Shown piece after piece: positions 2,790 through 19,251 of a DNA stretch of 32,000 bases. Position numbers and translations under genes: made by a program. This DNA is from Okeania sp. GTDB taxonomy: Bacteria > Cyanobacteriota > Cyanobacteriia > Cyanobacteriales > Microcoleaceae. Below the pieces are notes generated by a model. That model was given only the letters and a program-made list of their open reading frames with translations, was not told where the DNA came from and did no database searches. The stretch is from NCBI RefSeq assembly GCF_035285525.1, contig NZ_JAYKGW010000186.1, forward strand, positions 1 to 32,000, written 5' to 3'. The first letter of the stretch is position 1, and each line of letters starts with the position of its first letter.

Positions 2790-3344
2790 CTACTCTCCAA
2801 ATAATCTCTCGACAGAAACCTCCACTTCCCTAAACGCCAACGGTACAATTACGCCCTGACTGAAAGTTTCTTGAGACTTATAATCTGTATTCGTAGGAGA
2901 ACGAAATACCACAACTTCCGAATTTTGCAAATTAATCACCCAATATTCTGGAATACCTACCGCAGCATAAATCTTACTTTTTACCTCCAAATCTTTACTC
3001 AAAGTAGAATTAGAATATTCTATCAACCAAAATATATTTTCTGGATAGGGGTGATGTTCGCGATAATTTCTACCTAAGCGTTGTACGATTGCAATATCTG
3101 GTTCGGGTTCAGAATTACTTTGTGGTAATGTAATAGGTTTACCTTGACGGACTTTAGCGCGTTCCCCTAACAGATATATCAAATATTCTGCTGCTTCATC
3201 ACTGGTATAAGCATGAAATTCTCCCTCTGGCGCCATTTCCACAATTTCTCCATTTAATAATTCCACACAGCGTTCCACTAATATTCCTGCTGCAATCATT
3301 TGATGATATTCGGTAACTGTCCACTTGGCAGTAGTCATAGTCAT
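2790..3344 (-). CDS. Uma2-family (DUF820) putative endonuclease, second paralogue
   Basis: 184-aa ORF with CVELLNGEIVEMAPE, SEPEPDIAIV and WLIEYSNSTLSKDLEVKSKIYAAVGIPEYWVINL, colinear with the 1574-2116 product. Confidence 0.85.
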   Translation of the reverse strand: MTMTTAKWTVTEYHQMIAAGILVERCVELLNGEIVEMAPEGEFHAYTSDEAAEYLIYLLGERAKVRQGKPITLPQSNSEPEPDIAIVQRLGRNYREHHPYPENIFWLIEYSNSTLSKDLEVKSKIYAAVGIPEYWVINLQNSEVVVFRSPTNTDYKSQETFSQGVIVPLAFREVEVSVERLFGE

Positions 3345-3902: not shown

Positions 3903-4200
3903 GCGATATAGCTACCGCACTTGCTCTGTCTTTTATGTTGCGAAGGGTTTCAGATCAGTTATCAGTTATTATTGATAGTTTGGTTGAAGTAAAGATTACT
4001 TTAATTAAAGTAGGTTGGGTTTCACTTTTTTCAACCCAACAACACCTTGACGCTTGCGGTTACAGCCCTTTTCAGATCAATGAACCACAAGAAAAAAGCG
4101 ATAACTCTGTAGGGACCTTGCATGCAAGGTCCCTAAAGTATATTCAAATGAAAACTGCTGTCATGTTGGGTTGAGGTAACGAAACCCAACCTACAAATAC
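3885..4200. repeat. Composite dispersed repeat, copy B (pairs with 2187-2470)
   Basis: See copy A. It also contains the palindrome tagggaccttgcatgcaaggtcccta (4110-4135); a related copy lies at 3428-3452. Confidence 0.8.
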
Positions 4201-4678: not shown

Positions 4679-4979
4679 AACAAAAGACTTCTTATATTCA
4701 TAACCAAAACTAATTACCGAATCATTAATTCAGATTAAAGAGGTAATGATCCATTAATATATCCTCATCCCAAATTAATTTTGTACACAAATCCCCTTAA
4801 ATTTTCTTAACAAATATTGAGAGTATATACCTGATTTTTTGTCAATAGATGTAACAAAAAATTTCCAACTTCTTATAGAATTGTATCAAATCAATACATT
4901 ACTCTACCTTTTTGGCAAATTTTCTGGTATATATACTCAATTGAGCATCAGCAACTATCCCCAAGGAGTAATACTTAAA

Positions 4980-7900
4980 ATGTTCACATCCGTTAAACCT
5001 ACCATTCGCCACATTGTCCCAGATGACTTGAAGGGGCGATCGCTCTTAAAGGTTGTATATATAGTTCTAGAAGCACAGTATCAAAGTGCCCTTTCCGGAG
5101 CAGTACGTTCTATTAACGAGAAAAATCCTAATTTGGCCATAGAAATAAGTGGCTATTTAATAGAAGAACTCCGCGACCCCCAAAACTACGAAAACTTTAA
5201 AAGAGAAGTTTCTGAAGCTAACATTTTTATCGCCTCCCTAATTTTCATTGAAGACTTGGCCGAAAAAGTAGTAGAAGCTGTAACACCCCACCGCGACAAA
5301 CTCGATGCTGCGGTAGTTTTCCCTTCCATGCCACAAGTGATGCGCCTGAATAAAATGGGTACATTCTCCATGGCGCAACTAGGTCAGAGCAAAAGTGCTA
5401 TAGCTCAGTTTATGCGGAAGCGCAAAGAAAAATCTGGTTCTTCTTTCCAAGATGGAATGTTGAAGTTACTGCAAACTCTGCCGAAAGTATTGAAATATAT
5501 GCCTATTGATAAGGCGCAGGATGCTAGGAACTTTATGCTCAGTTTCCAATATTGGTTAGGGGGTTCCTCCGAAAACTTGGAAAACTTCTTACTGATGTTG
5601 GCAGATAAATATGTTTTCAAAGATGAGAAAAAAAGTTCTTTTAAATATGTCGATCCAGTAGTTTATCCAGACATGGGTGTTTGGCATCCCCTCGCCCCCA
5701 AAATGTTTGAAGACGTCAAAGAATATCTCAACTGGTACAACCAGCGCCAAGATATTTCCGAAGATTTGAAAGACCCCCTCGCTCCTTGTGTTGGTTTAGT
5801 TTTGCAGCGCACCCACTTAGTTACCGGAGACGACGCTCACTACGTTGCCATGTTGCAAGAGTTGGAAGCATTGGGAGCTAGAGTTATTCCCGTATTCGCT
5901 GGAGGATTAGATTTTTCCAAACCAGTCGATGCTTATTTCTGGGAAACCGCTGCCAAAGGAGTTGCACCCACACCATTAGTAGATACAGTTATTTCCTTGA
6001 CTGGTTTTGCATTAGTTGGCGGACCTGCAAGACAAGACCATCCGAAAGCCATCGAATCCTTGAAACGGTTGAACCGTCCATATATGGTAGCTTTACCTCT
6101 AGTTTTCCAAACCACCGAAGAATGGGAAGAAAGCGAACTTGGTCTGCACCCCATACAAGTCGCTTTGCAAATAGCTATTCCCGAACTAGACGGAGCGATC
6201 GAACCTATTATTATGTCTGGGCGAGATGGAGCAACCGGAAAAGCGATCGCTCTCCAAGACCGGATCGAAGCAGTCGCTACACGGGCGCTGAAGTGGGCAA
6301 GTCTGAGACGCAAACCTAAACTGAATAAAAAAGTTGCCATTACTATTTTCAGTTTCCCACCAGATAAAGGAAATGTTGGTACTGCTGCATATTTAGATGT
6401 ATTCGGTTCCATCTATGAAGTTGTCAAAGGACTCAAAAACAACGGTTACGATATTCAAGACTTGCCAGACTCCGCAGCAGAGTTGATGAAGCAAGTTATT
6501 CACGATGCCACTGCTCAATATCAAAGTCCTGAGTTGAATATTGCTCACCGGATGTCAGTTGCAGAATATGAACGTCTGACTCCATACTCCGAAAGGTTGC
6601 ATGAAAACTGGGGTCCGCCTCCAGGAAACCTGAATAGCGACGGCGAAAATTTATTAATTTACGGTAAGAGTTTCGGCAACGTTTTCATCGGAGTCCAACC
6701 AACATTTGGTTATGAAGGCGATCCTATGCGGTTATTGTTCTCTCGTTCCGCTAGTCCTCATCATGGTTTTGCTGCTTACTATACTTATTTAGAACAAATT
6801 TGGCAAGCTGATGCGGTACTACATTTCGGGACTCACGGTTCTCTCGAATTTATGCCTGGTAAACAAATCGGAATGTCTGGAGACTGTTATCCAGATAATC
6901 TGATCGGTAATATTCCCAACATCTATTATTATGCAGCGAATAATCCTAGTGAGGCGACTATTGCTAAACGTCGGAGTTATGCAGAGACTATTTCTTATTT
7001 GACTCCCCCTGCCGAAAATGCTGGTTTATATAAAGGTTTGCAGGAGTTGAACGAGTTGATCGGTTCTTATCAAACTTTGAAAGATAGCGGACGGGGTGTT
7101 CCCATTGTTAACACTATTATGGATAAGTGTCGGATGGTGAACTTAGACCAGGATGTGACGCTGCCAGAAAAAGATGCTCAGGAGTTGACTGCTGAGGAAC
7201 GGGATAAAATTGTCGGTGATGTTTACCGCCGACTGATGGAAATAGAGTCTCGGTTATTGCCTTGTGGTTTGCACATTATTGGTAAACCTCCTAGTGCTGA
7301 GGAAGCGATCGCTACTTTGGTAAATATTGCTAGTCTCGACAGAGAAGAGGAAGGAATAACTGGTTTACCTAGAATTATTGCTAACAGTCTCAACCGGGAT
7401 ATTGAGGAACTTTACCAAAATAATAATCAGGGTATTTTGGCAGATGTGGAGTTAGTTCAGAGTATTACGGAAGCGACTCGTGCTGCTGTTGCTGCGTTGG
7501 TTCACCAACAAACCGATGCTGACGGCCGAGTTTCGATGGTGAGCAAACTCAATTTCTTCAACATGATGAAAAAAGCACCTTGGATAGAAGCTCTGGAAAC
7601 AGCAGGCTTTCCCGATGTTGATGCCGAACTTATTAAACCTCTGTTTGAATATTTGGAATTTTGCTTAGAGCAGGTTTGTGCTGATAACGAGTTAGGTTCC
7701 CTGTTGCGAGCGTTGGAAGGAGAATATATTTTACCGGGACCTGGTGGCGACCCCATTCGCAACCCAGATGTGTTACCGACTGGTAAGAATATGCACGCTC
7801 TCGACCCCCAGTCTATTCCCACTGCTGCTGCGGTTAAGTCGGCAAAAATTGTAGTTGACCGTTTATTGGCGCGACAAATGCAAGAAAATGGTGGGCAGTA

Positions 7901-8969
7901 TCCAGAAACTATCGCTGTTGTGTTGTGGGGAACTGACAATATCAAGACTTATGGTGAATCTCTTGCTCAAGTAATGTGGATGGTAGGTGTGAAACCTGTA
8001 CCTGATGCTTTAGGTAGGGTGAATAAGTTAGAATTAATTCCATTATCAGAATTAGGTCGTCCCCGTGTTGACGTAGTGATTAACTGTTCCGGTGTATTCC
8101 GAGATTTATTTATCAATCAAATGAACCTTTTGGATAAAGCTGTGAAAATGGCAGCAGAAGCAGAGGAACCGGAAGAGATGAACTTTGTTCGGAAGCACGC
8201 TCTCAAGCAAGCCGAAGAGTTAGGAGTAAATTTACGTCAAGCTGCAACGCGGGTATTTTCTAATGCTTCCGGTTCCTATGCTGCGAACGTTAATTTGGCA
8301 GTTGAGAATAGTACCTGGGAAGATGAGTCAGAATTACAGGAAATGTATTTGAAGCGCAAGTCGTTTGCATTTAATTCTGATAACCCAGGAATGATGGAAG
8401 ATAACCGGAAAGTGTTTGAGTCAGCATTGAAAACTGCCGATGCCACATTCCAGAATTTAGATTCGTCGGAAATTAGTTTAACCGATGTGAGTCATTATTT
8501 TGATTCCGATCCGACAAAAATTGTGGCGAGTCTGAGGAAAGATGGTAAAAAACCATCTTCTTATATTGCGGATACGACGACTGCCAATGCTCAGGTGCGT
8601 TCATTATCTGAGACGGTACGTTTAGATGCGCGGACAAAAATGTTGAATCCGAAATGGTATGAGGGAATGTTGTCTCATGGTTATGAAGGAGTGCGGGAGT
8701 TGTCAAAGCGTCTCGTGAATACTATGGGATGGAGTGCGACTGCTGGTGCTGTGGATAACTGGGTTTATGAAGATGTGAATGAGACATTTATAAAGGATGA
8801 GCAGATGCAGCAGCGGTTGTTGAATTTGAATCCGCATTCGTTCCGGAAGATGGTGACGACATTGTTGGAAGTGAACGGACGTGGTTATTGGGAGACAAGT
8901 GAGAGTAATTTGGATCGGTTAAGAGAGTTGTATCAGCAAGTGGAGGATAGGATAGAGGGGATAGAGTAA
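4980..8969 (+). CDS. chlH: Magnesium chelatase subunit H (CobN/ChlH family)
   Basis: Long ORF 4839-8969. I place the start at ATG 4980 ([35 protein letters not shown]), giving 1329 aa, the usual ChlH size. CobN/ChlH signatures are present throughout, e.g. [15 protein letters not shown] and [21 protein letters not shown]. Confidence 0.96.
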
Positions 8970-9006: not shown

Positions 9007-9034
9007 AGTATCTCTAATTATTAATTATCTATGG

Positions 9035-9062
9035 TAGGGTGGGTGAATATTTGCCCGCCCTA
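9035..9062 (+). terminator. Stem-loop downstream of chlH (candidate terminator)
   Basis: tagggtgggtgaat/atttgcccgcccta forms an inverted repeat (with G-U pairs) followed by tttcat. A similar hairpin, gtaggggcaaacggcggttcgcccctac, lies at about 22845-22872. Confidence 0.45.
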
Positions 9063-9105
9063 TTTCATATTACTGCAGTTTGTAAAATATCTTTTTTATC
9101 TCAAA

Positions 9106-10848
9106 ATGGAACTACACGCATACACTAAAACAATTTCCGAGCTATTTTCTGTAAAGAAGCAGTATATTGTCCCTAGATTTCAAAGACCATACTCATGGGA
9201 TAAAGATAAGGTATCTGAGTTATGGGATGATATAGTTTCAAATATTTCCATCAATGATGATAATACCTTTAGTTATGAAGAGTATTTTATTGGTTCACTT
9301 GTTCTTGTAGGTGATGATAAGTCTGTAAAGATGCAAATTGTTGATGGACAACAACGCTTAACAACATTGACTATTCTACTTTCTACCCTTTGTCAAAGGT
9401 TTCTAGAGATTGATAAAAAAAATATAGCTGAATCTATCTATGAAAACTATATTGCCGGAAAAGATGACGACGGTAATTATTATTTTAAATTAGAAAATGA
9501 GACCCCAAAACCTTTTTTTCAAACAGTTATTCAAGATATTAATAAAGTTAGTAAAAAACAATGTCTCCCATCTTCTGAGGAAGAACAAACTTTGTTAAAT
9601 TCATATGATGAATTTTATTCTTACACCTCTAAAACATCTCTCAAGCAGAAATTTAAAAAATATCGTCTAGATGAAAGTTTATATGAAAATCTTTTGAAGG
9701 CAATTAGAGATCAAGTCGTTACGTATTTGAAAGTGATTTTTATAACTGTTAAAGAAGAAGATGATGCTTATACAATCTTTGAAACTTTAAATGCTAGAGG
9801 AATGGACTTAACTTTTGTTGATTTAATAAAAAATAAAGTCTTCAAAAGCTCAACAACAACTCACCCCGATGATTTTACCAAAACTAAGTGGACAAACTTG
9901 AGAAATATAATAGATTCACGAGATGATGTAGGCAGTCTAGAAATTTTTGTAAGACACTGGTGGATATCTAAATATGATTATACGAGTAAAGATAATATTT
10001 ACAAACATTTTAAAAAGCGATGGAATAGTGGGGAAATAGGTGAAAATTTTTTAGATGAGTTAGTAAATGATGCTAAATTGTACATGAAAATATCATCTCC
10101 TGTTACAGAAGACTTTAAGCAGCAGGAAGAAAAAGACCTATATAAATCTTTAGTGGCATTAAAAATTTTTAATGTTAGTCAACAAAAACCTTTCATACTA
10201 AGCCTATTCAAAACTTTAGAAAATAAGAAAATAACATTAGCTCAAGTAAAAGACATTCTTACTTTTATTGAAAAATTTCACTTCTCTTTGAATGCAATCT
10301 GTTCTTTGGGTTCTTTAGGTATTGAAAGAAGTTATTCTACAGCGGCAAGAGAACTACTTAAAGCAAATAACAAACGACAATCAAACCAAGTATTAAAGGA
10401 ATTAAAACAACGGTTTGAACCACGAATTCCTGCGAGAAGCACTTTCGTAGAGAACTTCTCTCGATTAAAGTATACCAGTAAAGAGCCTAAACATAAAAAA
10501 CTAATTCAATATATTTTTAGCTATATTGAATCACGCAAACAAACAACTAATGAGTTTAAGCCTAATAGCATGACATTAGAGCATATATTACCCCAATCTT
10601 ATAAGAAAGATAAAGAATTTGTAGCTTCTATTGGTAATTTATTACCTTTGGGACAAAAATTAAATGAAGAAGCTGCGGATAAAGATGTTCATAAAAAAAT
10701 AGAGATATATAAGAAATCAAATTTTGCACTAACACAAGAATTTGCTCAAACTCCTCCTCAAAAATGGGGAAAGGAAGAAATTAGAAAAAGAACAAATGAT
10801 CTGGCTGAATATTGTTACAATTCTATGTGGAATAATAGCAACCCATGA
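9106..10848 (+). CDS. GmrSD-like nuclease: N-terminal DUF262 (ParB-like NTPase, DGQQR motif) plus C-terminal DUF1524 (His-Me finger)
   Basis: The ORF is 9031-10848; the likely start is ATG 9106 (MELHAYTKTISELF). FQRPYSWDKDKVSELWDDI and IVDGQQRLTTLTILL are DUF262 hallmarks. TLEHILPQS..IGNLLPLGQKLNEEAADK is the DUF1524 H...N...N nuclease motif. Confidence 0.85.
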   Translation: MELHAYTKTISELFSVKKQYIVPRFQRPYSWDKDKVSELWDDIVSNISINDDNTFSYEEYFIGSLVLVGDDKSVKMQIVDGQQRLTTLTILLSTLCQRFLEIDKKNIAESIYENYIAGKDDDGNYYFKLENETPKPFFQTVIQDINKVSKKQCLPSSEEEQTLLNSYDEFYSYTSKTSLKQKFKKYRLDESLYENLLKAIRDQVVTYLKVIFITVKEEDDAYTIFETLNARGMDLTFVDLIKNKVFKSSTTTHPDDFTKTKWTNLRNIIDSRDDVGSLEIFVRHWWISKYDYTSKDNIYKHFKKRWNSGEIGENFLDELVNDAKLYMKISSPVTEDFKQQEEKDLYKSLVALKIFNVSQQKPFILSLFKTLENKKITLAQVKDILTFIEKFHFSLNAICSLGSLGIERSYSTAARELLKANNKRQSNQVLKELKQRFEPRIPARSTFVENFSRLKYTSKEPKHKKLIQYIFSYIESRKQTTNEFKPNSMTLEHILPQSYKKDKEFVASIGNLLPLGQKLNEEAADKDVHKKIEIYKKSNFALTQEFAQTPPQKWGKEEIRKRTNDLAEYCYNSMWNNSNP

Positions 10849-11051
10849 TTTACGAAATAATCCTTTACTGGAGTCAAGAAGACCGAGCATTTATAGAAGA
10901 AGTTCCAGAATTACCAGGTTGTATTGCTGATGGAGAAACCTATCAACAAGCACTGCAAAATGTAGAAATAATTATGCAAGAATGGATAGAAACTGCTCAA
11001 GAATTAGGACGAGAAATTCCTACACCAAAAAATCGGTTAATCTTAACATAG
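10845..11051 (+). CDS. hicB: HicB-family antitoxin-like protein (N-terminal HicB fold only, no DNA-binding domain)
   Basis: 68 aa: MIYEIILYWSQEDRAFIEEVPELPGCIADGETYQQALQNVEIIMQEWIETAQELGREIPTP. The vPeLPGC..G.T..eA core is typical of HicB/UPF0150. The ATG overlaps the stop of the upstream nuclease gene (ATGA at 10845-10848). Confidence 0.85.
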   Translation: MIYEIILYWSQEDRAFIEEVPELPGCIADGETYQQALQNVEIIMQEWIETAQELGREIPTPKNRLILT

Positions 11052-11066
11052 ATAAAATAGGCGATT
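10955..11066 (+). repeat. hicB 3'-end unit, copy 1 (functional copy inside hicB)
   Basis: 10955-11041 is identical (87/87 by eye) to 15297-15383. The tail catagataaaataggcgat resembles the tails of copies 3-5. Confidence 0.9.
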
Positions 11067-11186
11067 CTCTAGTTAATTATATATTCAATCAGACATAATA
11101 AAAATTTACATAGCAATTAGATTAAATTTGTAGTAAAGTATTAAGTGAAGTTGTTTTTGAAAAAATTTGAGAAAAGGAAAATCTAG

Positions 11187-11999
11187 ATGACAAATAAAAC
11201 CTGCTTTGATATTTTTGAGCAGTGCGTATTAGCTGTCCAGGGAGGTGAACTCATTGAATCTGTCAGCCGTAAAGACAAAGAGTTTCATTTTCAAAACTGG
11301 TTTAAAAAACGTTTACAAAATATTCCAGTTCATTTTGAAGAATCAGGGAGAAATAAATACCCAGATTTCTGTTTAGTCGAGTCAACTGAAGGTTATGAGG
11401 TTAAAGGTTTGGCTTGGCCTGGCCGCGAACGTGACTACGACTGCAATAGCCAAGTTCCAACAGGTTATCATAACGGCAGGCAAATATTTTATGTTTTTGG
11501 TCGTTATCCTGCCGATCTGTCAGTTTATCCAGACAAAGTGAACGGAAACCGACAGTATCCAGTAATCGATCTAGTAATCTGTCACGGTGATTTTCTGAAT
11601 GCAGAACATAACTACGTTCACAAGAATAAAAGTGTCAAAGGTTTTGGCAGTTATGGAGATATTATGATTCGCGATCGCAAAATGTATGTTGCTCCAACAC
11701 CTTTTGCACTAACCGAAGGAACAACCGGTTTAATGACTCTCATTGTTCCCGAAGGTATGGATGCTGACTCTAGGTTTCAAGAAGTTGGTCGATTAAGTCG
11801 TTTTGAAGCAGACAGTCTAGTAGTCGGTTACTCCTTTGACTTGGAGACTAACGAACTTAAAGCCCAGATGCGTCCTAATCCCAATGCAGGAAACGAACAT
11901 AAATTTATAGCATATAGGCTCACTAACCAAGGCTCAAGGTTTGTCACAATGGCAGGTGTTACTCCAGCTATTGATGAAAGTATGGAAAGTAATGAGTAA
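11187..11999 (+). CDS. Putative PD-(D/E)xK restriction endonuclease
   Basis: 270-aa ORF with E32...KYPD60FCLVESTEGYE71VK73GL, a classic E...PD...ExK arrangement. It lies directly upstream of a DNA methyltransferase on the same strand. Confidence 0.6.
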   Translation: MTNKTCFDIFEQCVLAVQGGELIESVSRKDKEFHFQNWFKKRLQNIPVHFEESGRNKYPDFCLVESTEGYEVKGLAWPGRERDYDCNSQVPTGYHNGRQIFYVFGRYPADLSVYPDKVNGNRQYPVIDLVICHGDFLNAEHNYVHKNKSVKGFGSYGDIMIRDRKMYVAPTPFALTEGTTGLMTLIVPEGMDADSRFQEVGRLSRFEADSLVVGYSFDLETNELKAQMRPNPNAGNEHKFIAYRLTNQGSRFVTMAGVTPAIDESMESNE

Positions 12000-12002
12000 T
12001 AG

Positions 12003-12085
12003 ACATCTCCAAAAATCAAAAATCAAATCAATTATTTCGTCCTGTTCCCTGTTCCCTATTCCCTGTTCCCTATTTTCTGGAGATG
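12003..12085. mobile_element. 83-bp MITE-like element with terminal inverted repeats and an internal heptamer array
   Basis: Left end catctccaaaaat, right end attttctggagatg. The interior is cctgttc cctgttc cctattc cctgttc cctattt. A related inverted copy is at 19641-19747 and a partial copy at 20317-20345. Confidence 0.75.
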
Positions 12086-12089
12086 AGTA

Positions 12090-14219
12090 ATGAATCCAAG
12101 AATTAAACAACATCCATTGATTCCACCCGATGCAACTACTGCAATTGAATGTGATTTCCCGATTCTTGAAATTAGCCAATTAGCAGAGCGAGAGAGTTGG
12201 CGTAAGGAAATTAATCGCCCAATATATCACATTCACAAATGGTGGGCGACACGCTTGGGAACAGTATTTCGTGCCATTACTTTAGCAGCTTTGAGTCGCC
12301 CTGGTACTAATATTTGGAACAATTTCTATGAAAGTCACCAATTCACGAACAAAGTCGTACTCGATCCATTTATGGGTAGTGGTACAACCCTAGGGGAAGC
12401 AGTTAAACTAGGAGCTAAGGCAATAGGTTGCGATATCAACCCCATCAGCACTTTTCTGGTTCGTCAAGCATTTACTAGAGTTCCAGAAACAGAACTTCGG
12501 GCTGCATTTACTCGTCTTGAACAGAAAGTTGCTCCCGATATTCGTCATTATTATCAGACTAGAGACCCACATACTGGCGAATTGATACCAGTGCTTTACT
12601 TTTTCTGGGTTAAGACTGTCGTCACACCCACGTTGGAAACGATTCCACTTTTTTCTAGGTATGTATTTTCACAGAATGCTTACCCTAAGAAAAAGCCGAA
12701 AGCTCAGATTATTTGTCCCAACTGTTGGAGTGTAATTGAAAATAGGTATGACACCACCAACCTGATATGTCCTCATTGTCAGCATTCCTTCAATCCTCAA
12801 AAAGGACCTGCATCGGGTCAATACATAACTGCACAAGATGGTACTCGCTACCGTATTAAAGACCTTTTACCATCTAATGGCAACCCACCAGTAAATCGGC
12901 TATATGCTATTATGGCGTTACGTCGAAATGGTGAGAAAGTTTACCTTCCAGTGAGAGAGGAAGATTTATCATTGTATACTGAGGCTGAAGCCAGACTAAA
13001 ATCTGAGACTTTGCCACTACCAACTTTGAAAATTAGAGATGGATATAATACCAACCAAGCTCGTAGTTATAATTACACCTACTGGCGCGACTTTTTTAAT
13101 TCTAGACAGTTATTATGTCTTGGACTCCTGTTGCGCAGTATCCTTGAAATAGAAGATCAAGCCATTCAGGAGCAAATGTTATGTCTCTTTTCTAGCACTT
13201 TGGAATTCAATAGTTTGTTTTGTAGTTTCAAAGGTGAGGGTACTGGTGCTGTGCGACATACCTTTTCAAATCATATATTAAAGCCAGAGCGTACTCCCTT
13301 AGAAAACTCAGTATGGGGAACGGATAAGAGCAGTGGTACTTTCAGTAGCCTGTTTGAGTCGCGCTTGATGCGAGCAAAACGCTATCTGGATTATCCTTTT
13401 GAAATTAAACGTAACTTCACTGTTAAGCAGAAAGCATCCCAAAAACCTGTAGCAAGTCAAAGTATTAACGTTCAGAAAGTAAAAACATGGGAGCAATTTG
13501 ATAATAGGGAAAATAGCCTGATGGTAATCAATGGTGATAGTTCCTACTTACCCTTACCTGCAAAATCAGTTGATGCAGTTGTTACCGATCCCCCTTATTT
13601 CGATTTCATCCATTACAGCGAGTTAAGTGATTTCTTTTTTGCCTGGCTGTCTCCTGTTCTCAAAGATCGCTATCCAGAGTTTGCCAAACCTAATTCATCA
13701 AACCAGGGAGAAGTTCAAGATAAAAGTCCCCTCATATTTGCCAGACAACTTGCTTCAGTTTTTTCTCAGTGTAGCCGTGTACTTAAGGATGATGGAGTAT
13801 TGGTATTCAGTTTTCATCACTCCAAAGTTGAAGGATGGGCTGCGATTTGCGAAGCTATTACAATTGCTGGAATGCTTGTTGTTGCAACACATCCAGTTTA
13901 TAGTGAGTTCCGCACAGGAACCTCAAAGACAGCAGCTAAAAGCCGGATTTGCCTAGATGCAATCTTAGTTTGTAAGAAATATTCCTCATTTAATATACGT
14001 CTAGACCAGCAGACTTTAATAAGTAAGACTGAAACTTTAGCTAAACAACTCGAAGAGGGCGGAATATCTATTTCTGAAGCAGATCGTTTTGTAATTCTTG
14101 CCTCACAGATGTTAATCCCTTTATCTCAACAAAAAAGAGACTTTAATTTTGTGTGCAATACTTTACAACAAATACATCAAGTTGCTCAAAAATCTTGGAA
14201 TTCTAAAGTGGCTTCCTAA
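12090..14219 (+). CDS. DNA methyltransferase (N6-adenine/N4-cytosine class) with DUF1156-like N-terminus and internal zinc ribbon
   Basis: 709 aa. AdoMet motif I is VVLDPFMGSGTTLGEAVKLGAKAIGCDINP (from about nt 12357). Catalytic motif IV is VVTDPPYFDF (about nt 13579), roughly 380 aa downstream. CPNC...CPHC lies at 12714-12779. The N-terminal ERESWRKEINRPIYHIHKWWATR resembles the DUF1156 signature. Confidence 0.8.
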   Translation: MNPRIKQHPLIPPDATTAIECDFPILEISQLAERESWRKEINRPIYHIHKWWATRLGTVFRAITLAALSRPGTNIWNNFYESHQFTNKVVLDPFMGSGTTLGEAVKLGAKAIGCDINPISTFLVRQAFTRVPETELRAAFTRLEQKVAPDIRHYYQTRDPHTGELIPVLYFFWVKTVVTPTLETIPLFSRYVFSQNAYPKKKPKAQIICPNCWSVIENRYDTTNLICPHCQHSFNPQKGPASGQYITAQDGTRYRIKDLLPSNGNPPVNRLYAIMALRRNGEKVYLPVREEDLSLYTEAEARLKSETLPLPTLKIRDGYNTNQARSYNYTYWRDFFNSRQLLCLGLLLRSILEIEDQAIQEQMLCLFSSTLEFNSLFCSFKGEGTGAVRHTFSNHILKPERTPLENSVWGTDKSSGTFSSLFESRLMRAKRYLDYPFEIKRNFTVKQKASQKPVASQSINVQKVKTWEQFDNRENSLMVINGDSSYLPLPAKSVDAVVTDPPYFDFIHYSELSDFFFAWLSPVLKDRYPEFAKPNSSNQGEVQDKSPLIFARQLASVFSQCSRVLKDDGVLVFSFHHSKVEGWAAICEAITIAGMLVVATHPVYSEFRTGTSKTAAKSRICLDAILVCKKYSSFNIRLDQQTLISKTETLAKQLEEGGISISEADRFVILASQMLIPLSQQKRDFNFVCNTLQQIHQVAQKSWNSKVAS

Positions 14220-14281
14220 TGTAGAAATAATTATGCAAGAATGGATAGAAACTGCTCAATAATTAGGACGAGAAATTCCTA
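14218..14281 (+). repeat. hicB 3'-end unit, copy 2 (5' part only)
   Basis: 64 bp, aatgtagaaataattatgcaagaatggatagaaactgctcaaTaattaggacgagaaattccta, with 1 mismatch to copy 1. It exactly fills the gap between the methyltransferase stop (14217-14219) and the parD stop (14285-14287). Confidence 0.9.
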
Positions 14282-14284
14282 TCA

Positions 14285-14566
14285 TTATTTAATTATTCCT
14301 TGTTTCATTTCAGTTTCAATGTGGTTAATATCTGCCTCTAATTCTGCAAATACTTCTTCTCCATCAATTCCTTCACCACGATCTAGTTCTTCTATTCCCA
14401 TTCTTATTTTTTCTTTTAACTCAACAAAATGTTTAGCACGAATACTCTCTTTTTCTGATAAAAGTCGCAATGCTTCTCCTACTACTTCTGTAGCGGATGA
14501 ATACCTACCACTATTAACTTGTTCCTCAATAAATTTTCGCGCTTCTAGACTTAAAGATATGTTCAT
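14285..14566 (-). CDS. parD: ParD-family (COG3609, ribbon-helix-helix) type II antitoxin with no cognate parE
   Basis: 93 aa: MNISLSLEARKFIEEQVNSGRYSSATEVVGEALRLLSEKE..., the canonical ParD4-type N-terminus. Confidence 0.85.
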   Translation of the reverse strand: MNISLSLEARKFIEEQVNSGRYSSATEVVGEALRLLSEKESIRAKHFVELKEKIRMGIEELDRGEGIDGEEVFAELEADINHIETEMKQGIIK

Positions 14567-14655
14567 AAAAACGACCTAAATAATTGTCAAATTATTAAAA
14601 TTATAACCCTAGTAGGAAAATATAGCAAGTTGCATAATTTCCAGAATTATCCGCA

Positions 14656-14757
14656 CAAAAATACGGTCAATATTGATATAGATAAAGCAGGCGATCGCTC
14701 TTTTTATGAAGAGAGCGATCGCCACCATAACCAAACCAAAAATACCTGCTACTTTTA
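14656..14757 (+). repeat. hicB 3'-end unit, copy 3 (3' part plus HIP1 hairpin)
   Basis: caaaaatacggtcaatattgatatagataaagcaggcgatcgc aligns with ccaaaaaatcggttaatattggctagatagaagaggcgatcgc of copy 4. The trailing ..ataaccaaaccaaaaatacctgctactttt matches copy 5. Confidence 0.75.
14690..14723 (-). terminator. Near-perfect HIP1-based hairpin downstream of the DUF4160/DUF2442 operon
   Basis: ggcgatcgctct-ttttatga-agagagcgatcgcc has a 12-bp stem and lies 32 nt past the 14755 stop on the minus strand. Confidence 0.5.
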
Positions 14758-15030
14758 CACCAAAGAATGTACTTGACTACCAGGAGCAGGTGCGCCTCGT
14801 AATAATCCTTCCGTACTAATATCTTCGTCTATTTCTTCCCAATGAATACCATAACCACCACCACATATTTCCCATGCTTGTAGTTGTTCGGGAGTTGCTT
14901 TTAATAGACGAGGATACCAAACTAAAGGAACAGTAATAGTACGTCCATCCATCAGTTCAACACTGAAAGTATCCTCTTGTATTTGTACATTTTTAACTCG
15001 CTCATCAGCTTGAGGTGTTGAAGTACTCAT
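14755..15030 (-). CDS. DUF2442 domain protein
   Basis: 91 aa with FSVELMDGRTITVPLVWYPRLLKATPEQLQAWEICGGGYGIHWEEIDEDIS, the DUF2442 pattern. It overlaps the upstream DUF4160 gene by 26 nt. Confidence 0.8.
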   Translation of the reverse strand: MSTSTPQADERVKNVQIQEDTFSVELMDGRTITVPLVWYPRLLKATPEQLQAWEICGGGYGIHWEEIDEDISTEGLLRGAPAPGSQVHSLV

Positions 15031-15247
15031 TCCATTTCTCCAAAAAATTTTGTTGATTTAATTCGACAATTGATTGAATTTTTCTTAACTCTTTAGGACT
15101 GAACCCAATATTCTTAGCTAGAGATACAGAAGATAACCAGAATTTGGCAGAAAGATTATCTCTATCAACATGAATATGTGGTGGTTCATTTGGTTCGTGA
15201 CTATAGAAGTAAAAGCGATATGCTTCAAATCTAAGAACAGTTGGCAT
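15005..15247 (-). CDS. DUF4160 domain protein
   Basis: 80 aa: MPTVLRFEAYRFYFYSHEPNEPPHIHVDRDNLSAKFWL, the DUF4160 signature (F.F.F.S.E...PHiHv). It forms the commonly conserved pair with DUF2442. Confidence 0.8.
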   Translation of the reverse strand: MPTVLRFEAYRFYFYSHEPNEPPHIHVDRDNLSAKFWLSSVSLAKNIGFSPKELRKIQSIVELNQQNFLEKWNEYFNTSS

Positions 15248-15296
15248 TTTTTACTACTAAAATTTACTTTATTAATAGCATATATTGTCAAGCTTG

Positions 15297-15437
15297 GCAA
15301 AATGTAGAAATAATTATGCAAGAATGGATAGAAACTGCTCAAGAATTAGGACGAGAAATTCCTACACCAAAAAATCGGTTAATATTGGCTAGATAGAAGA
15401 GGCGATCGCCTTCCTCATAAAGAGAGCGATCACTACC
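15297..15437 (+). repeat. hicB 3'-end unit, copy 4 (full length: last ~29 hicB codons, alternative stop, degenerate HIP1 hairpin and T-run)
   Basis: 15297-15383 is identical to 10955-11041. It continues attggctagatag (would encode ..NRLILAR-stop), then ggcgatcgccttcctcataaagagagcgatcactacc followed by tttttttatt. Confidence 0.9.
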
Positions 15438-15515
15438 TTTTTTTATTACAACTTTTTGTGCTATCCTAAAGTAGATATTGCCTACTAAAAATAATCAAAT
15501 CAAGGAGTGAAAATC

Positions 15516-15845
15516 ATGGAAAACCCAATAGAAAAAATGGCAAAAGCAGCTACTAGAATAGATATTCGTGCTGCTGTGTCTGCGGCCAAGAATTACTTAA
15601 TTTCAGTGAAAGATTTATTAGGAGGAACACAAGATATTAGACTAGAAGAAGTTGAATTATCTGAAAACGAACAATTTTGGTTAATTACACTTGGATATAA
15701 CCGCAGAAAAGACCTTGCTTTACCTGATGAAGTTGATTATAGCGACTTATCTCCCGAATTTATTGGCATAGAACGAGATTATAAAATTTTTACAGTTAAT
15801 GCTCAGACAGGTGTAGTTGAATCTATGAAAATCCGCGAATTATGA
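15516..15845 (+). CDS. Hypothetical 109-aa protein, upstream partner of the PIN-like gene
   Basis: The ORF track starts at GTG 15507. I prefer ATG 15516, which is 8 nt after AGGAG (15503-15507). The stop overlaps the next gene's start (ATGA at 15842-15845). I see no RHH, HTH or AbrB motif. The C-terminus YKIFTVNAQTGVVESMKIREL is PepSY-like in flavour only. Confidence 0.6.
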   Translation: MENPIEKMAKAATRIDIRAAVSAAKNYLISVKDLLGGTQDIRLEEVELSENEQFWLITLGYNRRKDLALPDEVDYSDLSPEFIGIERDYKIFTVNAQTGVVESMKIREL

Positions 15846-16333
15846 TAATTGAAACTCAACTGTTAAAAAAATATCAAAGCAAAGGTATTTTAGTTGATAC
15901 AAATATTTTGCTTTTATGGTTTGTTGGTAGAGTTAATCAAAAGCGCATTTCTCGATTTAATCGCACTAAAAAATTTCTACCAGAACATTATCAATTATTA
16001 GATAGACTATTAAAGTTTGCCAAAGTTGTTACCACCCCTAATATTCTGACAGAAGTTAATAGTTTAATTAATCAAATGGGCGAACCAGACCGCTCAAAAT
16101 GCCTCAGTATTTTAGCTAAAGAAGTTACTAAACTAGATGAATTTTATCTTGAAAGTAGCACTGTCAGTCAAGAGGAAAAATTTACTAAATTTGGTTTAAC
16201 TGACAGTGGAATTATCAGTCTAGTACAAGGAAAATATTTAGTATTAACTGACGATTTTCCACTAGCAAATTATTTACAAAGCATTGGAGTTGATACAGTT
16301 AATTTTAACTATTTGATTGATTATCAATGGTAG
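15842..16333 (+). CDS. PIN-like domain nuclease (putative toxin or defence effector)
   Basis: 163 aa with acidic residues in PIN order: GILVDTNILL (D), TPNILTEVNSL (E), GLTDSGIISL (D), LVLTDDFPL (D). Confidence 0.65.
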   Translation: MIIETQLLKKYQSKGILVDTNILLLWFVGRVNQKRISRFNRTKKFLPEHYQLLDRLLKFAKVVTTPNILTEVNSLINQMGEPDRSKCLSILAKEVTKLDEFYLESSTVSQEEKFTKFGLTDSGIISLVQGKYLVLTDDFPLANYLQSIGVDTVNFNYLIDYQW

Positions 16334-16367
16334 TTGAAAAAAACTAAAATCTTCAGTCCAAAGGCTT

Positions 16368-16489
16368 AAAATACAGTCAATATTGACATAGATAAAACAA
16401 GCGATAGAACTCCGTTCCGCTTCGCGATCGCCTTCCTAAGAAAAAGAGCGATCGCTACTATAATTAAACTAAAAATACCTGCTATTTCA
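16368..16489 (+). repeat. hicB 3'-end unit, copy 5 (3' part plus hairpin, with ~20-bp insertion)
   Basis: aaaatacagtcaatattgacatagataaaacaagcgat...cgcgatcgccttcctaagaaaaagagcgatcgctactataattaaactaaaaatacctgctatttc is colinear with copy 3. It abuts the valS 3' end. Confidence 0.75.
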
Positions 16490-16515: not shown

Positions 16516-19251
16516 CTAATTTGACTTTAACTGATTCAGGCGATCGCGTAATATTTCTGCCTGTTTTTCTGCCTCTGCTAAATTATTTCTAGTTTCTTCT
16601 ACAAATTTAGGATCTGCCTTCTCAACAAAAGCAGGTTTACTTAACCTTTTAGAAGTAGATAAAATTTCTTTTTCTAACTTTCCTAATTTCTTTTCTAACC
16701 GAGCTGATAAAGCTTCAATATCTACTACTCCAGATAAAGAAATTAAAACTTGTACGGTTCCAATCACACCTGCAATAGTTTGACCAATTTTTTCATCAAT
16801 CTTAGCAGTAATATCTAACTTTTCAATCTTGACTAAATTCTGAATATAAACCTCTCCTTTTTGCAAAATTTTTCGTTCTTTTTCATTCTCACTTTGCAAA
16901 ATTGCTGTGATTTTCACCTTGGGTTTAATATCAACTTCTGCCCGTAAATTTCTCAATGTCCGAATTACCCCAATTAATAATTCAAACTCCTCTTCTAGAT
17001 CGGAATTAATTAAAGATTTCTCTAACTTCGGATAAGACTCCAAAGCCAAACATTTTTCTTCTCCAACCTGATTTAAAGTATGCCAAATTTCCTCAGTAAT
17101 ATGAGGCATAAAAGGATGTAATAATCTCAAAAATCCATCCAAAACATAAGCCAAAGTTTGCTGTGCCACTAACTTAGAATTTTCATCCTCACCCTGCAAA
17201 CGAGACTTCACTAATTCCAAATACCAATCACAAAAATCTCCCCAAATAAATTCATAAATACCTTTAGCAGCTTCCCCCAAACCATAATTATCTAAATAAT
17301 TACAAGTTTGCTGTACAGTCTGATAGAAACGAGACCAAATCCAACAATCAACTAACTCTAATTTATCCGCCTCTGGTTCTCCTAATTCTTGAGGAGTTTT
17401 CCCCTCTAATTTCATCATTACAAATCGAGCAGCATTCCAAATTTTATTAGTAAAATTTCGAGACGCTTCTACCGATGCTGACTCATCAGTTTCTCGATTA
17501 TAATCCATCCTTACATCTTGTCCTGCTCCGGCAGTTTCTCGCATCAAAGTATAACGCAAAGCATCAGTTCCATACTTTTCAATTAATAATAATGGGTCTA
17601 TTCCATTACCAACAGATTTAGATTGTTTTTTGCCGTTTTCATCTAACATTAAACCGTGAATATATACAGTTTCAAATGGCATTTCCCCAGTTAAATGTAC
17701 TCCCATCATTGTCATTCTAGCAACCCAGAAAAAGATGATATCAAAACCAGTTGAAAGAGTGCTAGTCGGATAATATTTAGCTAAGTCGGGAGTGTTTTCC
17801 GGCCAACCTAATGTGGAAAACGGCCATAAACCTGATGAAAACCATGTATCAAGCACATCTGGGTCTTGTTGAATTTTTACATCATCTCCAAATTTTGCCT
17901 TTGCTTGCTCTAATGCTTCCGCTTCCGAACGAGCGACAATAAAAGGAGTGCCATCAGTAATTTCGCCATTAGTTTCGCTGATAGCATACCAAGCCGGAAT
18001 TTGATGACCCCACCACAGTTGCCTAGAAATGCACCAGTCTTTAATTTTTACTAACCAGTCGCGATAAACTTTCGTCCAACGTTCCGGAACAAATTTCGGT
18101 TGATTGTGTTCATCTAATAATTCCAGTGTTTTCGTTGCCAATGGTTCAATTTTGACAAACCACTGAGTTGAAAGTAGAGGTTCTACAGGTACTTTCCCGC
18201 GATCGCTATAAGGAACGCTATGACTATATTCTTCTATTTTAACCAAAAACCCTTCTTCTCTTAATCGTTTGATAACATTTTTCCGTGCCTCAAAACGGTC
18301 TTGTCCGGCAAACACTCCGGCATTTTCATTCAAACTGCCATCCTTATTCATAATATTAATAAATGGCAAATTATGACGTTTACCCATTTCAAAATCATTG
18401 GGGTCATGGGCTGGAGTAACTTTAACACAACCAGTACCAAACTCAAGGTCTACCAACTCATCAGCAACAATAGGTATTTCCCGTCCCATTATTGGTAGAG
18501 TCAGAGTTTTGCCAATCAGATTTTTGTAGCGATCGTCATTGGGGTTCACTGCAACACCAGTATCTCCCAACATTGTTTCTGGACGAGTTGTAGCAACTTC
18601 CACATAACCACTACCATCAGTGAGGGGGTAGCGGAAATGCCAGAGGTTGCCATGAACTTCCTTATTTTCCACTTCCAAGTCAGAAACCGCAGACTGACTA
18701 GCAGGACACCAGTTCACCAAATAGTTACCGCGATAAATGAGACCTTGTTCATAGAGACGCATGAATGCTTCAATCACAGCTTTAGATAAACCTTCATCCA
18801 GAGTAAAACGTTCCCGCGTCCAGTCTGTAGAAACTCCGAGACGACGCAGTTGATTAACAATAGTACCACCAGACTCCGCTTTCCATTCCCAAGCACGTTC
18901 CAGGAATTTTTCCCGTCCGATATCGTAGCGAGTTTTGCCTTCAGCTTTCAGTTTACGTTCCAGAATAGTTTGAACTGCGATACTAGCGTGGTCAGTACCA
19001 GGGAGATAGAGGGTATTTTCACCCCGCATTCGATGGTAACGGATCAAAGTGTCAATCAGAGAATTATTAAAAGCATGACCTGCATGGAGACTACCTGTAA
19101 CGTTTGGTGGAGGAATAACGATACAGTAAGGGTCTCCCGGTTGGTCAGGGTTGGCTTGGAATGTATTATTTTCTTCCCAATATTTTTGCCATTTAGCTTC
19201 AGTGGCAAACGGGTCATATTTGCTTGGTAGTTCAGGTATGGTTTTGGTCAT
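16516..19251 (-). CDS. valS: Valine--tRNA ligase
   Basis: 911 aa: [15 protein letters not shown] (HIGH-class motif), KQSKSVGN (KMSKS variant), a class Ia editing-domain layout and a C-terminal coiled coil (..[18 protein letters not shown]). Confidence 0.96.

Follow-up and report, generated by a model that had tools for sequence, protein, structure and literature searches.

A hypervariable array downstream of chlH in Okeania and its relatives: toxin-antitoxin and defence modules punctuated by pieces of a hicAB operon

Genes and repeats between chlH and valS

A stretch of 32,000 nucleotides (the window; contig NZ_JAYKGW010000186.1) from Okeania sp., a cyanobacterium of the Microcoleaceae that is close to Trichodesmium and does not belong to the Nostocales as a sequence-only reading of the same DNA had assumed, was analyzed. 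Between the genes chlH and valS lies a series of short modules that encode a restriction enzyme, a DNA methyltransferase and genes of toxin-antitoxin type, and five copies of a repeat unit stand among them. The unit consists of the 3' end of an intact hicB-like antitoxin gene (h), a tail (t), a HIP1 hairpin and a segment of about 32 nt (x), in this order. Throughout the Trichodesmium-Okeania-Dapis clade, an array of toxin-antitoxin and defence modules that is hypervariable lies directly downstream of chlH, and the chlH-valS interval is one case of it. For comparison, about 30 related loci (numbered with the prefix L) were collected by exact-protein look-ups and by pattern scans of species-representative, metagenome and viral collections. 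All compared genomes are draft assemblies and many of them are metagenome-assembled genomes (MAGs).

The sequence-only reading had listed five direct copies of the unit, and their positions were verified by repeat finding, by BLAST and by counting a 40-mer from the unit, which occurs 3 times in the window compared with 0 occurrences expected from 100 shuffles. All five copies have the same orientation:

10947-11065, + strand: copy 1, h and t, the tail with the GTTAATCTTAAC palindrome
14218-14281, + strand: copy 2, an internal hicB fragment (h13-76) that matches 10959-11022 over 64 bp with 1 mismatch
14652-14757, + strand: copy 3, the last few nt of h, then t, the HIP1 hairpin (14690-14723) and x (caccataacc...cctgctactt), directly adjacent to the stop codon of DUF2442
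15289-15437, + strand: copy 4, h (from 'caagc'), t and the HIP1 hairpin (15390-15437), followed by a T-run
16368-16489, + strand: copy 5, t, an 18-nt insert (16406-16423) in the HIP1 site, the HIP1 hairpin and x

Copies 1 and 4 are identical at 87 of 87 positions (10955-11041 and 15297-15383), and their similarity, with mismatches, reaches 10947-11065 and 15289-15406, respectively. This run had been described as the last 87 bp of hicB; the identity is as reported, but the run ends 10 nt before the stop codon (11049-11051). Copy 1 ends after GGCGAT, inside a HIP1 half-site, where a restriction-modification (RM)-like module starts, and this junction recurs in Okeania SIO3B5 (L001, near 6239) and in L032. 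As had been claimed, copy 2 fills the gap between the convergent stop codons of the methyltransferase gene (14217-14219) and parD (14285-14287) to within 3 nt. It had been taken for an inserted unit; in SIO3B5, a complete 69-aa hicB follows the methyltransferase gene at this place, which shows copy 2 to be a leftover of such a second, full-length hicB, cut on both sides by window-specific deletions. At least 8 genomes share, by descent, an identical left junction of copy 4 with the region upstream of DUF4160, and copy 5 is closest (88%) to the unit that follows GmrSD-hicB in SIO3B5.

The 18-nt insert of copy 5 (AGAACTCCGTTCCGCTTC, 16406-16423, within 16401-16431) lies inside the HIP1 site directly after GCGAT, and variants of it are also present in units of L001, L003, L004, L010, L012, L019 and L021. 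The junction with the RM-like module (11065/11066, GGCGAT|TCTCTAG) occupies the same HIP1 position. GCGAT^CGC is the cleavage position of AsiSI/SgfI, and a link between HIP1 cutting and illegitimate joining is possible.

The genes of the interval and its two flanks are as follows:

4839-8969, + strand: chlH, Mg-chelatase H subunit, the conserved left anchor of the array
9031-10848, + strand: GmrSD-type (DUF262/DUF1524) type IV restriction enzyme of 605 aa, the first module (GmrSD_N 1.6e-39, GmrSD_C 1.4e-20, PADLOC HEC-06 6e-97)
10845-11051, + strand: intact hicB-like antitoxin gene, 68 aa (HicB_lk_antitox 9.1e-09 and UPF0150 4.8e-07, both above the Pfam cutoffs; PHROG 497)
11187-11999, + strand: 270-aa protein, first gene of the RM-like module, family not found
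12090-14219, + strand: 709-aa DNA methyltransferase (N6_N4_Mtase, DUF1156-type, PglX-like)
14285-14566, - strand: parD antitoxin gene, now an orphan
14755-15030, - strand: DUF2442 gene
15005-15247, - strand: DUF4160 gene
15507-15845, + strand: gene for a 109/112-aa protein, the first of a two-gene module
15842-16333, + strand: gene for a PIN-like protein of 163 aa (named PIN domain-containing by NCBI, no Pfam match)
16516-19251, - strand: valS, the right flank in this genome only

The chlH genes that flank the arrays in L001, L003, L004, L005, L008, L010, L012, L016 and L021 share 92-99% amino acid identity with the chlH of the window; in the window, the real start of chlH probably lies about 140 nt downstream of the start of the open reading frame (ORF). 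On the other side, the place of valS is taken in other genomes by recQ, an asparaginase gene or other genes. The island had been thought to begin at hicB, but its start is at 9031, with the GmrSD gene. The stop codon of this gene and the start codon of hicB overlap (ATGA, 10845-10848), and the homology of the window hicB to other hicB copies begins only at about codon 3 ('tacgaaataatcc'), where it is fused to the GmrSD module. SIO3B5 and L032 have the same arrangement. No hicA was detected upstream of the window hicB, which is directly preceded by the GmrSD gene. The restriction enzyme has thus taken the place of hicA as the gene that is translationally coupled to hicB.

The 270-aa protein had been labelled a nuclease, but it belongs to no detectable family: neither Pfam, NCBIfam, PADLOC nor PHROGs gave a match, and none of the matches to PDB sequences was significant. 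Its gene always accompanies the methyltransferase gene (L001, L032). The 109/112-aa protein likewise had no match in Pfam, NCBIfam, PADLOC or PHROGs, and its module with the PIN-like gene recurs with unchanged junctions in L003, L004 and L021. Both proteins are kept with their partners across the clade. The DUF4160/DUF2442 pair, a putative toxin-antitoxin-like module, is found with the same two junctions in L001 (twice), L004, L005, L008, L012, L018, L019 and L031. Upstream of chlH, the window carries genes for XisI and two paralogous Uma2-family putative endonucleases (1199-1471, 1574-2116 and 2790-3344, all on the - strand), so that accessory genes are present on both sides of chlH. Further ORFs of the window encode GNAT, SurE, MutL and other proteins.

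Origin and distribution of the repeat unit

Many hicB copies in the related loci are preceded by a conserved 'leader' of about 95 bp. Upstream alignment and translation identified this leader as the 3' end of hicA (...RGSHHIFTKEGVEEILNIQPKGSQAKAYQVKQIRAVIIKYHLEN*). A nearly complete hicA is found in L016, and hicA or its last approximately 25 codons precede hicB in L016, L018, L019, L015, L004 and L012. As the leader encodes the HicA C-terminus, the unit corresponds to the 3' part of a hicA-hicB operon of canonical type, together with its HIP1-hairpin terminator region. It is probably not a dedicated recombination site. Its tail t includes a conserved 12-bp palindrome over the stop codon, GTYAATATTGRY (also given as GTCAATATTGAC). 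Most copies are non-coding fragments. The copies share one 3' end and are nested within one another by 5' truncations of increasing length. The left boundaries, from the longest to the shortest copy, are:

hicA and hicB: L016
last approximately 25 hicA codons and hicB: several loci
hicB from codon 3: the GmrSD context, including the window
h from 10947: the DUF4160 side
h13 or h16: after the REP palindrome in Trichodesmium; L009; copy 2 of the window
h21: after another HicA
h73 or t only: after parD and after PIN

The junction thus lies at h1, h13, h16, h21, h73, t5, hicB codon 3 or within hicA, depending on the module type. Every one of these junctions is conserved across species, which indicates that each arose once, and the different positions in different module types argue against a single crossover point. 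The proposal of an att-like site with a defined crossover is not supported by these data.

The unit had also been likened to an integron-like hairpin. As single-stranded DNA, its h and t part folds no better than shuffled sequences (z = -0.40 and +0.10); only the HIP1 stem gave a significant fold (z = -5.2 for copy 3 and -3.5 for copy 5). On reading the unit, no RYYYAAC/GTTRRRY pair, no R''/R' motifs and no attC-like symmetry were found, and neither an Rfam family nor a tRNA is present. An attC-like or otherwise structured site, a known RNA family and a tRNA target were rejected on these grounds.

When 185,579 species-representative genomes were scanned with a degenerate 26-mer from the tail (AAAAWWMRGTYAATATTGRYRTAGAT), 16 stretches matched, with 1-5 matches in a genome, and apart from one chance match all of them fell in Okeania, Dapis or Microcoleaceae. 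In the metagenome collection, 9 stretches were found on short contigs, and viral contigs gave 0 matches. These pattern scans require exact matches, and diverged units are under-counted in all of these numbers. The unit is absent from the plasmid and phage collections; cyanobacterial plasmids carry only distant homologues of the PIN and DUF modules. The 109aa-PIN pair is present also on Nostoc plasmids. Most copies of the unit are located in the array directly downstream of chlH, namely in Okeania SIO3B5, SIO3I5, SIO2B3 and KiyG1, in Dapis M229 and M172, in two MAGs and in a Trichodesmium TARA scaffold. A few solitary hicB copies outside the island stand beside a glycosyltransferase gene (L009, L015). 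The low copy number, the location in the chlH island and the direct orientation rule out a generic high-copy miniature inverted-repeat transposable element, the possibility that the sequence-only reading had itself put forward as fatal to its proposal. The clade has a REP palindrome of its own, which differs in sequence from the unit.

Array polymorphism between genomes

The set and the order of the modules are different in every genome compared, and units are found between them. Modules that include hicB are GmrSD-hicB, 270aa-methyltransferase-hicB, helicase-hicB, STAND-NTPase-hicB and amine oxidase-hicB. Other modules are parDE, DUF4160/DUF2442, 109aa-PIN, a second HicB-like/HicA pair, TIR-GUN4 with DUF7689, MafB19 deaminase/Imm1, DUF433/DUF5615 and a RAYT-like (REP-associated tyrosine transposase-like) gene.

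Two block presence/absence differences coincide exactly with unit boundaries. The first is seen in SIO3B5. Its sequence and that of the window are collinear over GmrSD-hicB and, further on, over the stretch that leads from the 3' end of hicB into the gene for the 270-aa protein. These two collinear parts are separated in SIO3B5 by an additional block of about 735 bp (hairpin, x, DUF2442 and DUF4160) that is flanked by direct repeats of h and t of about 119 bp, and the window shows the single-repeat state at this site. The second concerns the 4.3-kb block between the 87-bp repeats of the window, which is missing in SIO3I5, Dapis M229 and Trichodesmium. In these three genomes, hicB or its remnant is followed by 109aa-PIN, and the junction is identical to the one after copy 4. 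This is the arrangement that had been predicted to result from a deletion between the two perfect repeats. The claim that units delimit modules which appear and disappear as blocks is borne out, and the polymorphism between genomes coincides exactly with unit boundaries. In Trichodesmium (L021), the unit between the PIN-like and DUF2442 modules, which is present in Okeania and Dapis, is missing, and the PIN-like ORF is extended to 214 aa (10001-10645) and overlaps the convergent DUF2442 gene (10624-10899).

One part of the array had been interpreted differently. Copies 2 and 3 had been combined into one full unit that was split by a 374-bp segment carrying parD. However, KiyG1, Dapis M172, SIO3I5 and L026 have a 101-aa gene, presumably the parE toxin gene, after parD, and the module is flanked by units. 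The window lacks the 101-aa gene, and copy 2, which ends in ...gaaattccta, lies directly next to the stop codon of parD. The junction between the parD upstream region and the tail, 'ccagaatta|tccgcacaaaaat' (equivalent to 'cctacaccaaaaat'), is common to the window and Dapis M172, whereas the other side differs. The parD segment is thus a parDE remnant, in which an inherited junction on the parD side and a window-specific deletion that removed the toxin gene produce the look of one unit split by an insert. Alignment of the four parD(E) loci rules out a discrete parD insertion. A 112-aa ORF (14241-14579, + strand) runs antisense to parD and starts inside copy 2; it is probably spurious and may be the extra gene between parD and DUF2442 in the NCBI annotation.

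As the window is a short-read assembly, the pairing of flanks across the perfect 87-bp repeat rests on this assembly, and the possibility that modules in short-read MAG contigs were joined incorrectly, across repeats that are nearly identical, was considered. When other strains of the species were looked up by exact protein matches, the only matches were short Logan contigs of the same run (SRR19514071; L002, L033, L034), which are 100% identical to the window and end inside units. Units evidently break the short-read assembly graph, and the module order in short-read MAGs has to be treated with caution. Nevertheless, 87 bp is shorter than usual read lengths, and each junction of the window recurs in independent assemblies of other species, including the cultured KiyG1 and Dapis BLCC. 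The observations do not hinge on the contig of the window alone, and an assembly artefact is considered to be a very improbable explanation.

Sequence variants within the unit provide a further line of evidence. The type of flank (hicB or DUF4160 side), an indel (aaaatg or aattcagg) and the ataga/attga/tatta variants occur in all pairwise combinations in less than 45 nt. Past exchange breakpoints at several places inside the unit are indicated by these combinations, as homologous recombination or gene conversion predicts. Without exchange through the repeats, it is hard to account for the reordering of modules, the repeat-bounded indels and the combinations of variants together.

How the array may be maintained and reshuffled

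The reading that is favored here, and which we regard as reasonably probable, is that the array is kept and reshuffled by general (RecA-type) homologous recombination on portable homology derived from hicAB. Each module type carries its own 5'-truncated piece of hicAB, and 40-300 bp of homology bracket every module. As this homology is the same for all modules, RecA-type recombination could insert, delete, duplicate and swap them. For an insertion, a circle or fragment with a module and a partial hicAB would recombine with the resident hicAB in a single Campbell-type crossover; the expected product, a full copy followed by the module and a 5'-truncated copy, matches the pattern that is seen. 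Modules would be lost by loop-out between direct repeats and copied by unequal exchange. Strains could swap them through two crossovers, either one in each of two units or one in chlH and the other in a unit. Units and toxin genes would later be trimmed by illegitimate deletions, which in the window removed the 5' part of the hicB after the methyltransferase gene, and parE. The recombination would depend on RecA, and circular intermediates or transformation may take part in it.

No tyrosine or serine recombinase was found among the ORFs of the window or in any array examined (about 15 arrays: L001, L003, L004, L005, L008-L010, L012, L015-L019, L021 and L026), in agreement with the sequence-only reading, which had noted none nearby; whole genomes were not searched. 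This negative result speaks for the favored reading. The only transposase-type genes in or near some arrays were IS605 orfB and DDE fragments and the RAYT-like gene. Other observations weigh against the favored reading. All evidence is comparative, and recombination itself is inferred. Some repeats are short (t alone has about 42 bp) and would be poor RecA substrates. The identity of a 59-nt unit core is the same within genomes (0.905) and between genomes (0.905; permutation p = 0.51), so that there is no genome-wide concerted evolution, and concerted evolution as proof of ongoing gene conversion was looked for and not found. The identical copies of the window have the most common allele, which SIO2B3 and SIO1I7 share with 100% identity, and the perfect 87-bp identity is therefore no sign of a recent event. 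Several junctions that arose independently are concentrated near h73-t5 ('cctacacc|aaaat') and at GCGAT| in HIP1, which could hint at a sequence-directed cut. Finally, the 3' end is kept in nearly all copies, which random deletion alone does not predict.

Some of these observations would suit a passive origin, in which a hotspot of illegitimate insertion and deletion around tandem hicAB paralogues has left units as pseudogene fragments that take no part in the movement of modules, and in which species differ through vertical decay only. Many junctions look like one-off events, among them the deletion of about 190 bp after the methyltransferase gene of the window and the deletion of parE. Homogenization within genomes was not found, and fragments of IS605 orfB and DDE transposases lie in or near some arrays. 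However, the same modules with the same junctions stand in other orders and neighborhoods across species, the two block differences coincide exactly with direct repeats, and linked variants occur in all combinations within the unit. Passive decay is therefore judged to be an unlikely account of the array.

A site-specific cassette platform, in which a tyrosine or serine recombinase encoded elsewhere uses the unit of hicB 3' end, tail and hairpin as its attachment site, would resemble clusters of attC sites without a linked integrase (CALIN) or satellite and degenerate tRNA-island elements. It would be consistent with the one conserved anchor (chlH), with units between nearly all modules, with the conserved tail palindrome, with 3-4 independent junctions within about 10 nt at h73-t5 and others at the HIP1 position, and with the almost universal retention of 3' ends. 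A trans-acting enzyme elsewhere is possible, given that the recombinase search was limited to the window and the arrays, and integrase-less precedents exist in the attC clusters and in degenerate Prochlorococcus islands with partial repeats of the target gene. Set against this are the lack of any recombinase in the window and about 15 arrays, left boundaries that depend on the module type, some lying within hicA and others leaving no more than the tail, a unit without attC-like fold or motifs, and mosaic variants that point to exchange at several positions in the unit. Such a platform has a low probability in our assessment. The sequence-only reading is supported in its view of the interval as an array of cassettes and not in the att- or integron-like mechanism that it proposed.

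The remaining candidate engine is a RAYT-like Y1 transposase of 188-194 aa. Its gene is the first after chlH in Trichodesmium (L021, 7582-8166), in the MAG bin.35 (L016, 4635-5219) and in Dapis M172 (L010, 5721-6287, - strand). The protein has the HUH motif 'NHLHG' and the motif 'YIINNP' (YxxNP), scores just above the cutoff for Pfam Y1_Tnp and reaches 66 bits, compared with a cutoff of 80, for the NCBIfam model 'REP-associated tyrosine transposase'. The gene is flanked by a perfect palindrome of 32 nt (CCGTAGGGACGTTGCATGCAACGTCCCTACGG), and extra copies of the palindrome are found inside arrays beside units. The window contains one related palindrome upstream of chlH (4112-4133) and no RAYT-like gene. 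Mobilization of hairpin-bounded modules as single-stranded DNA by this HUH enzyme would fit the position of the gene immediately after chlH in three genomes, the three of four Trichodesmium units that are composites of REP, h13-77 and t with one shared junction, and the REP copies that adjoin units in L010, L030 and L032. However, the cognate REP sequence is unrelated to the h and t unit, the gene is absent from the window and from most arrays, the junctions between REP and unit are identical by descent and not independent insertions, and the NCBIfam score is below the cutoff. The RAYT-like gene is read as another resident of the island and not as the engine of the array, and its mobilizing role is highly doubtful. 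More generally, it is rather improbable that the arrays are a cassette-capture platform in which a trans-acting enzyme, either a recombinase encoded elsewhere or a RAYT-like HUH transposase, recognizes the tail or the hairpin and integrates and excises modules. If this were true, the platform would be an analogue of integrons in Trichodesmium-clade cyanobacteria with a gene-derived site.

Comparison with known systems helps to place the array. It resembles the islands of Prochlorococcus that grow by serial integration at tRNA and tmRNA 3' ends (tycheposons) as a cyanobacterial island at a fixed chromosomal position, in which modules are separated by direct, incomplete repeats of one gene's 3' end, an intact copy heads the array, newer arrivals shift older ones inward, degenerate remnants occur without an integrase and defence genes are among the cargo. 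Degenerate islands with partial repeats of the target gene and no integrase are known from Prochlorococcus itself. In contrast, the repeated gene is here a protein-coding hicAB operon and not a tRNA, an integrase is missing from about 15 arrays, there is no fixed att sequence of about 40 nt, and the modules comprise 0.4-3 kb with 1-3 genes instead of multi-gene elements with replication and integration modules. As in elements that target 3' ends, direct repeats of the hicB 3' end flank inserted DNA, with an intact hicB at one end, but an element-encoded integrase and a common boundary in all repeats are lacking.

Integrons and CALINs share with the array the one-sided anchor, cassettes of one or two genes with many toxin-antitoxin pairs, and a repeat of about 100-170 bp between cassettes that is highly similar within an array, and arrays without an integrase exist among them. 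They differ in that the array has no IntI, that its unit is gene-derived and lacks R''/L''-L'/R' symmetry, GTTRRRY and a bulged-hairpin fold, and that its cassettes have both orientations and their own upstream regions. The minimal mobile elements of Neisseria are different gene sets between conserved flanks, whose exchange, without a dedicated recombinase, is attributed to homologous recombination in the flanks. Here as well, the content at one site differs between related strains: the chlH flank is conserved (92-99% amino acid identity), the content is different in each genome and no recombinase is found in the examined loci. Unlike in Neisseria, the homology is internal and reiterated between modules, so that modules can be reshuffled one by one, accrete in tandem and loop out, and natural transformation is not established for these cyanobacteria. 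The relation to hicAB type II toxin-antitoxin loci is seen in the unit itself, which is hicB (HicB_lk_antitox/UPF0150) with hicA or its 3' end upstream in related loci; the window differs in that it lacks hicA and couples hicB to the GmrSD enzyme. Neither inter-module repeats derived from hicAB nor an array anchored at chlH were described in the literature searched.

On a global scale, Trichodesmium and its relatives are important fixers of nitrogen, and their genomes are known to be rich in repeats and loaded with toxin-antitoxin and defence genes. For the assembly of such genomes, the units serve as a warning, as these repeats break short-read graphs. The combination of chlH and the unit sequence offers a practical marker to recover and compare arrays in metagenomes. 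Exchange by general homologous recombination on pieces of hicAB provides a concrete and testable picture of how a defence island may gain, lose and reorder single modules without a linked integrase, in which a piece of one resident operon would travel with each module as portable homology.

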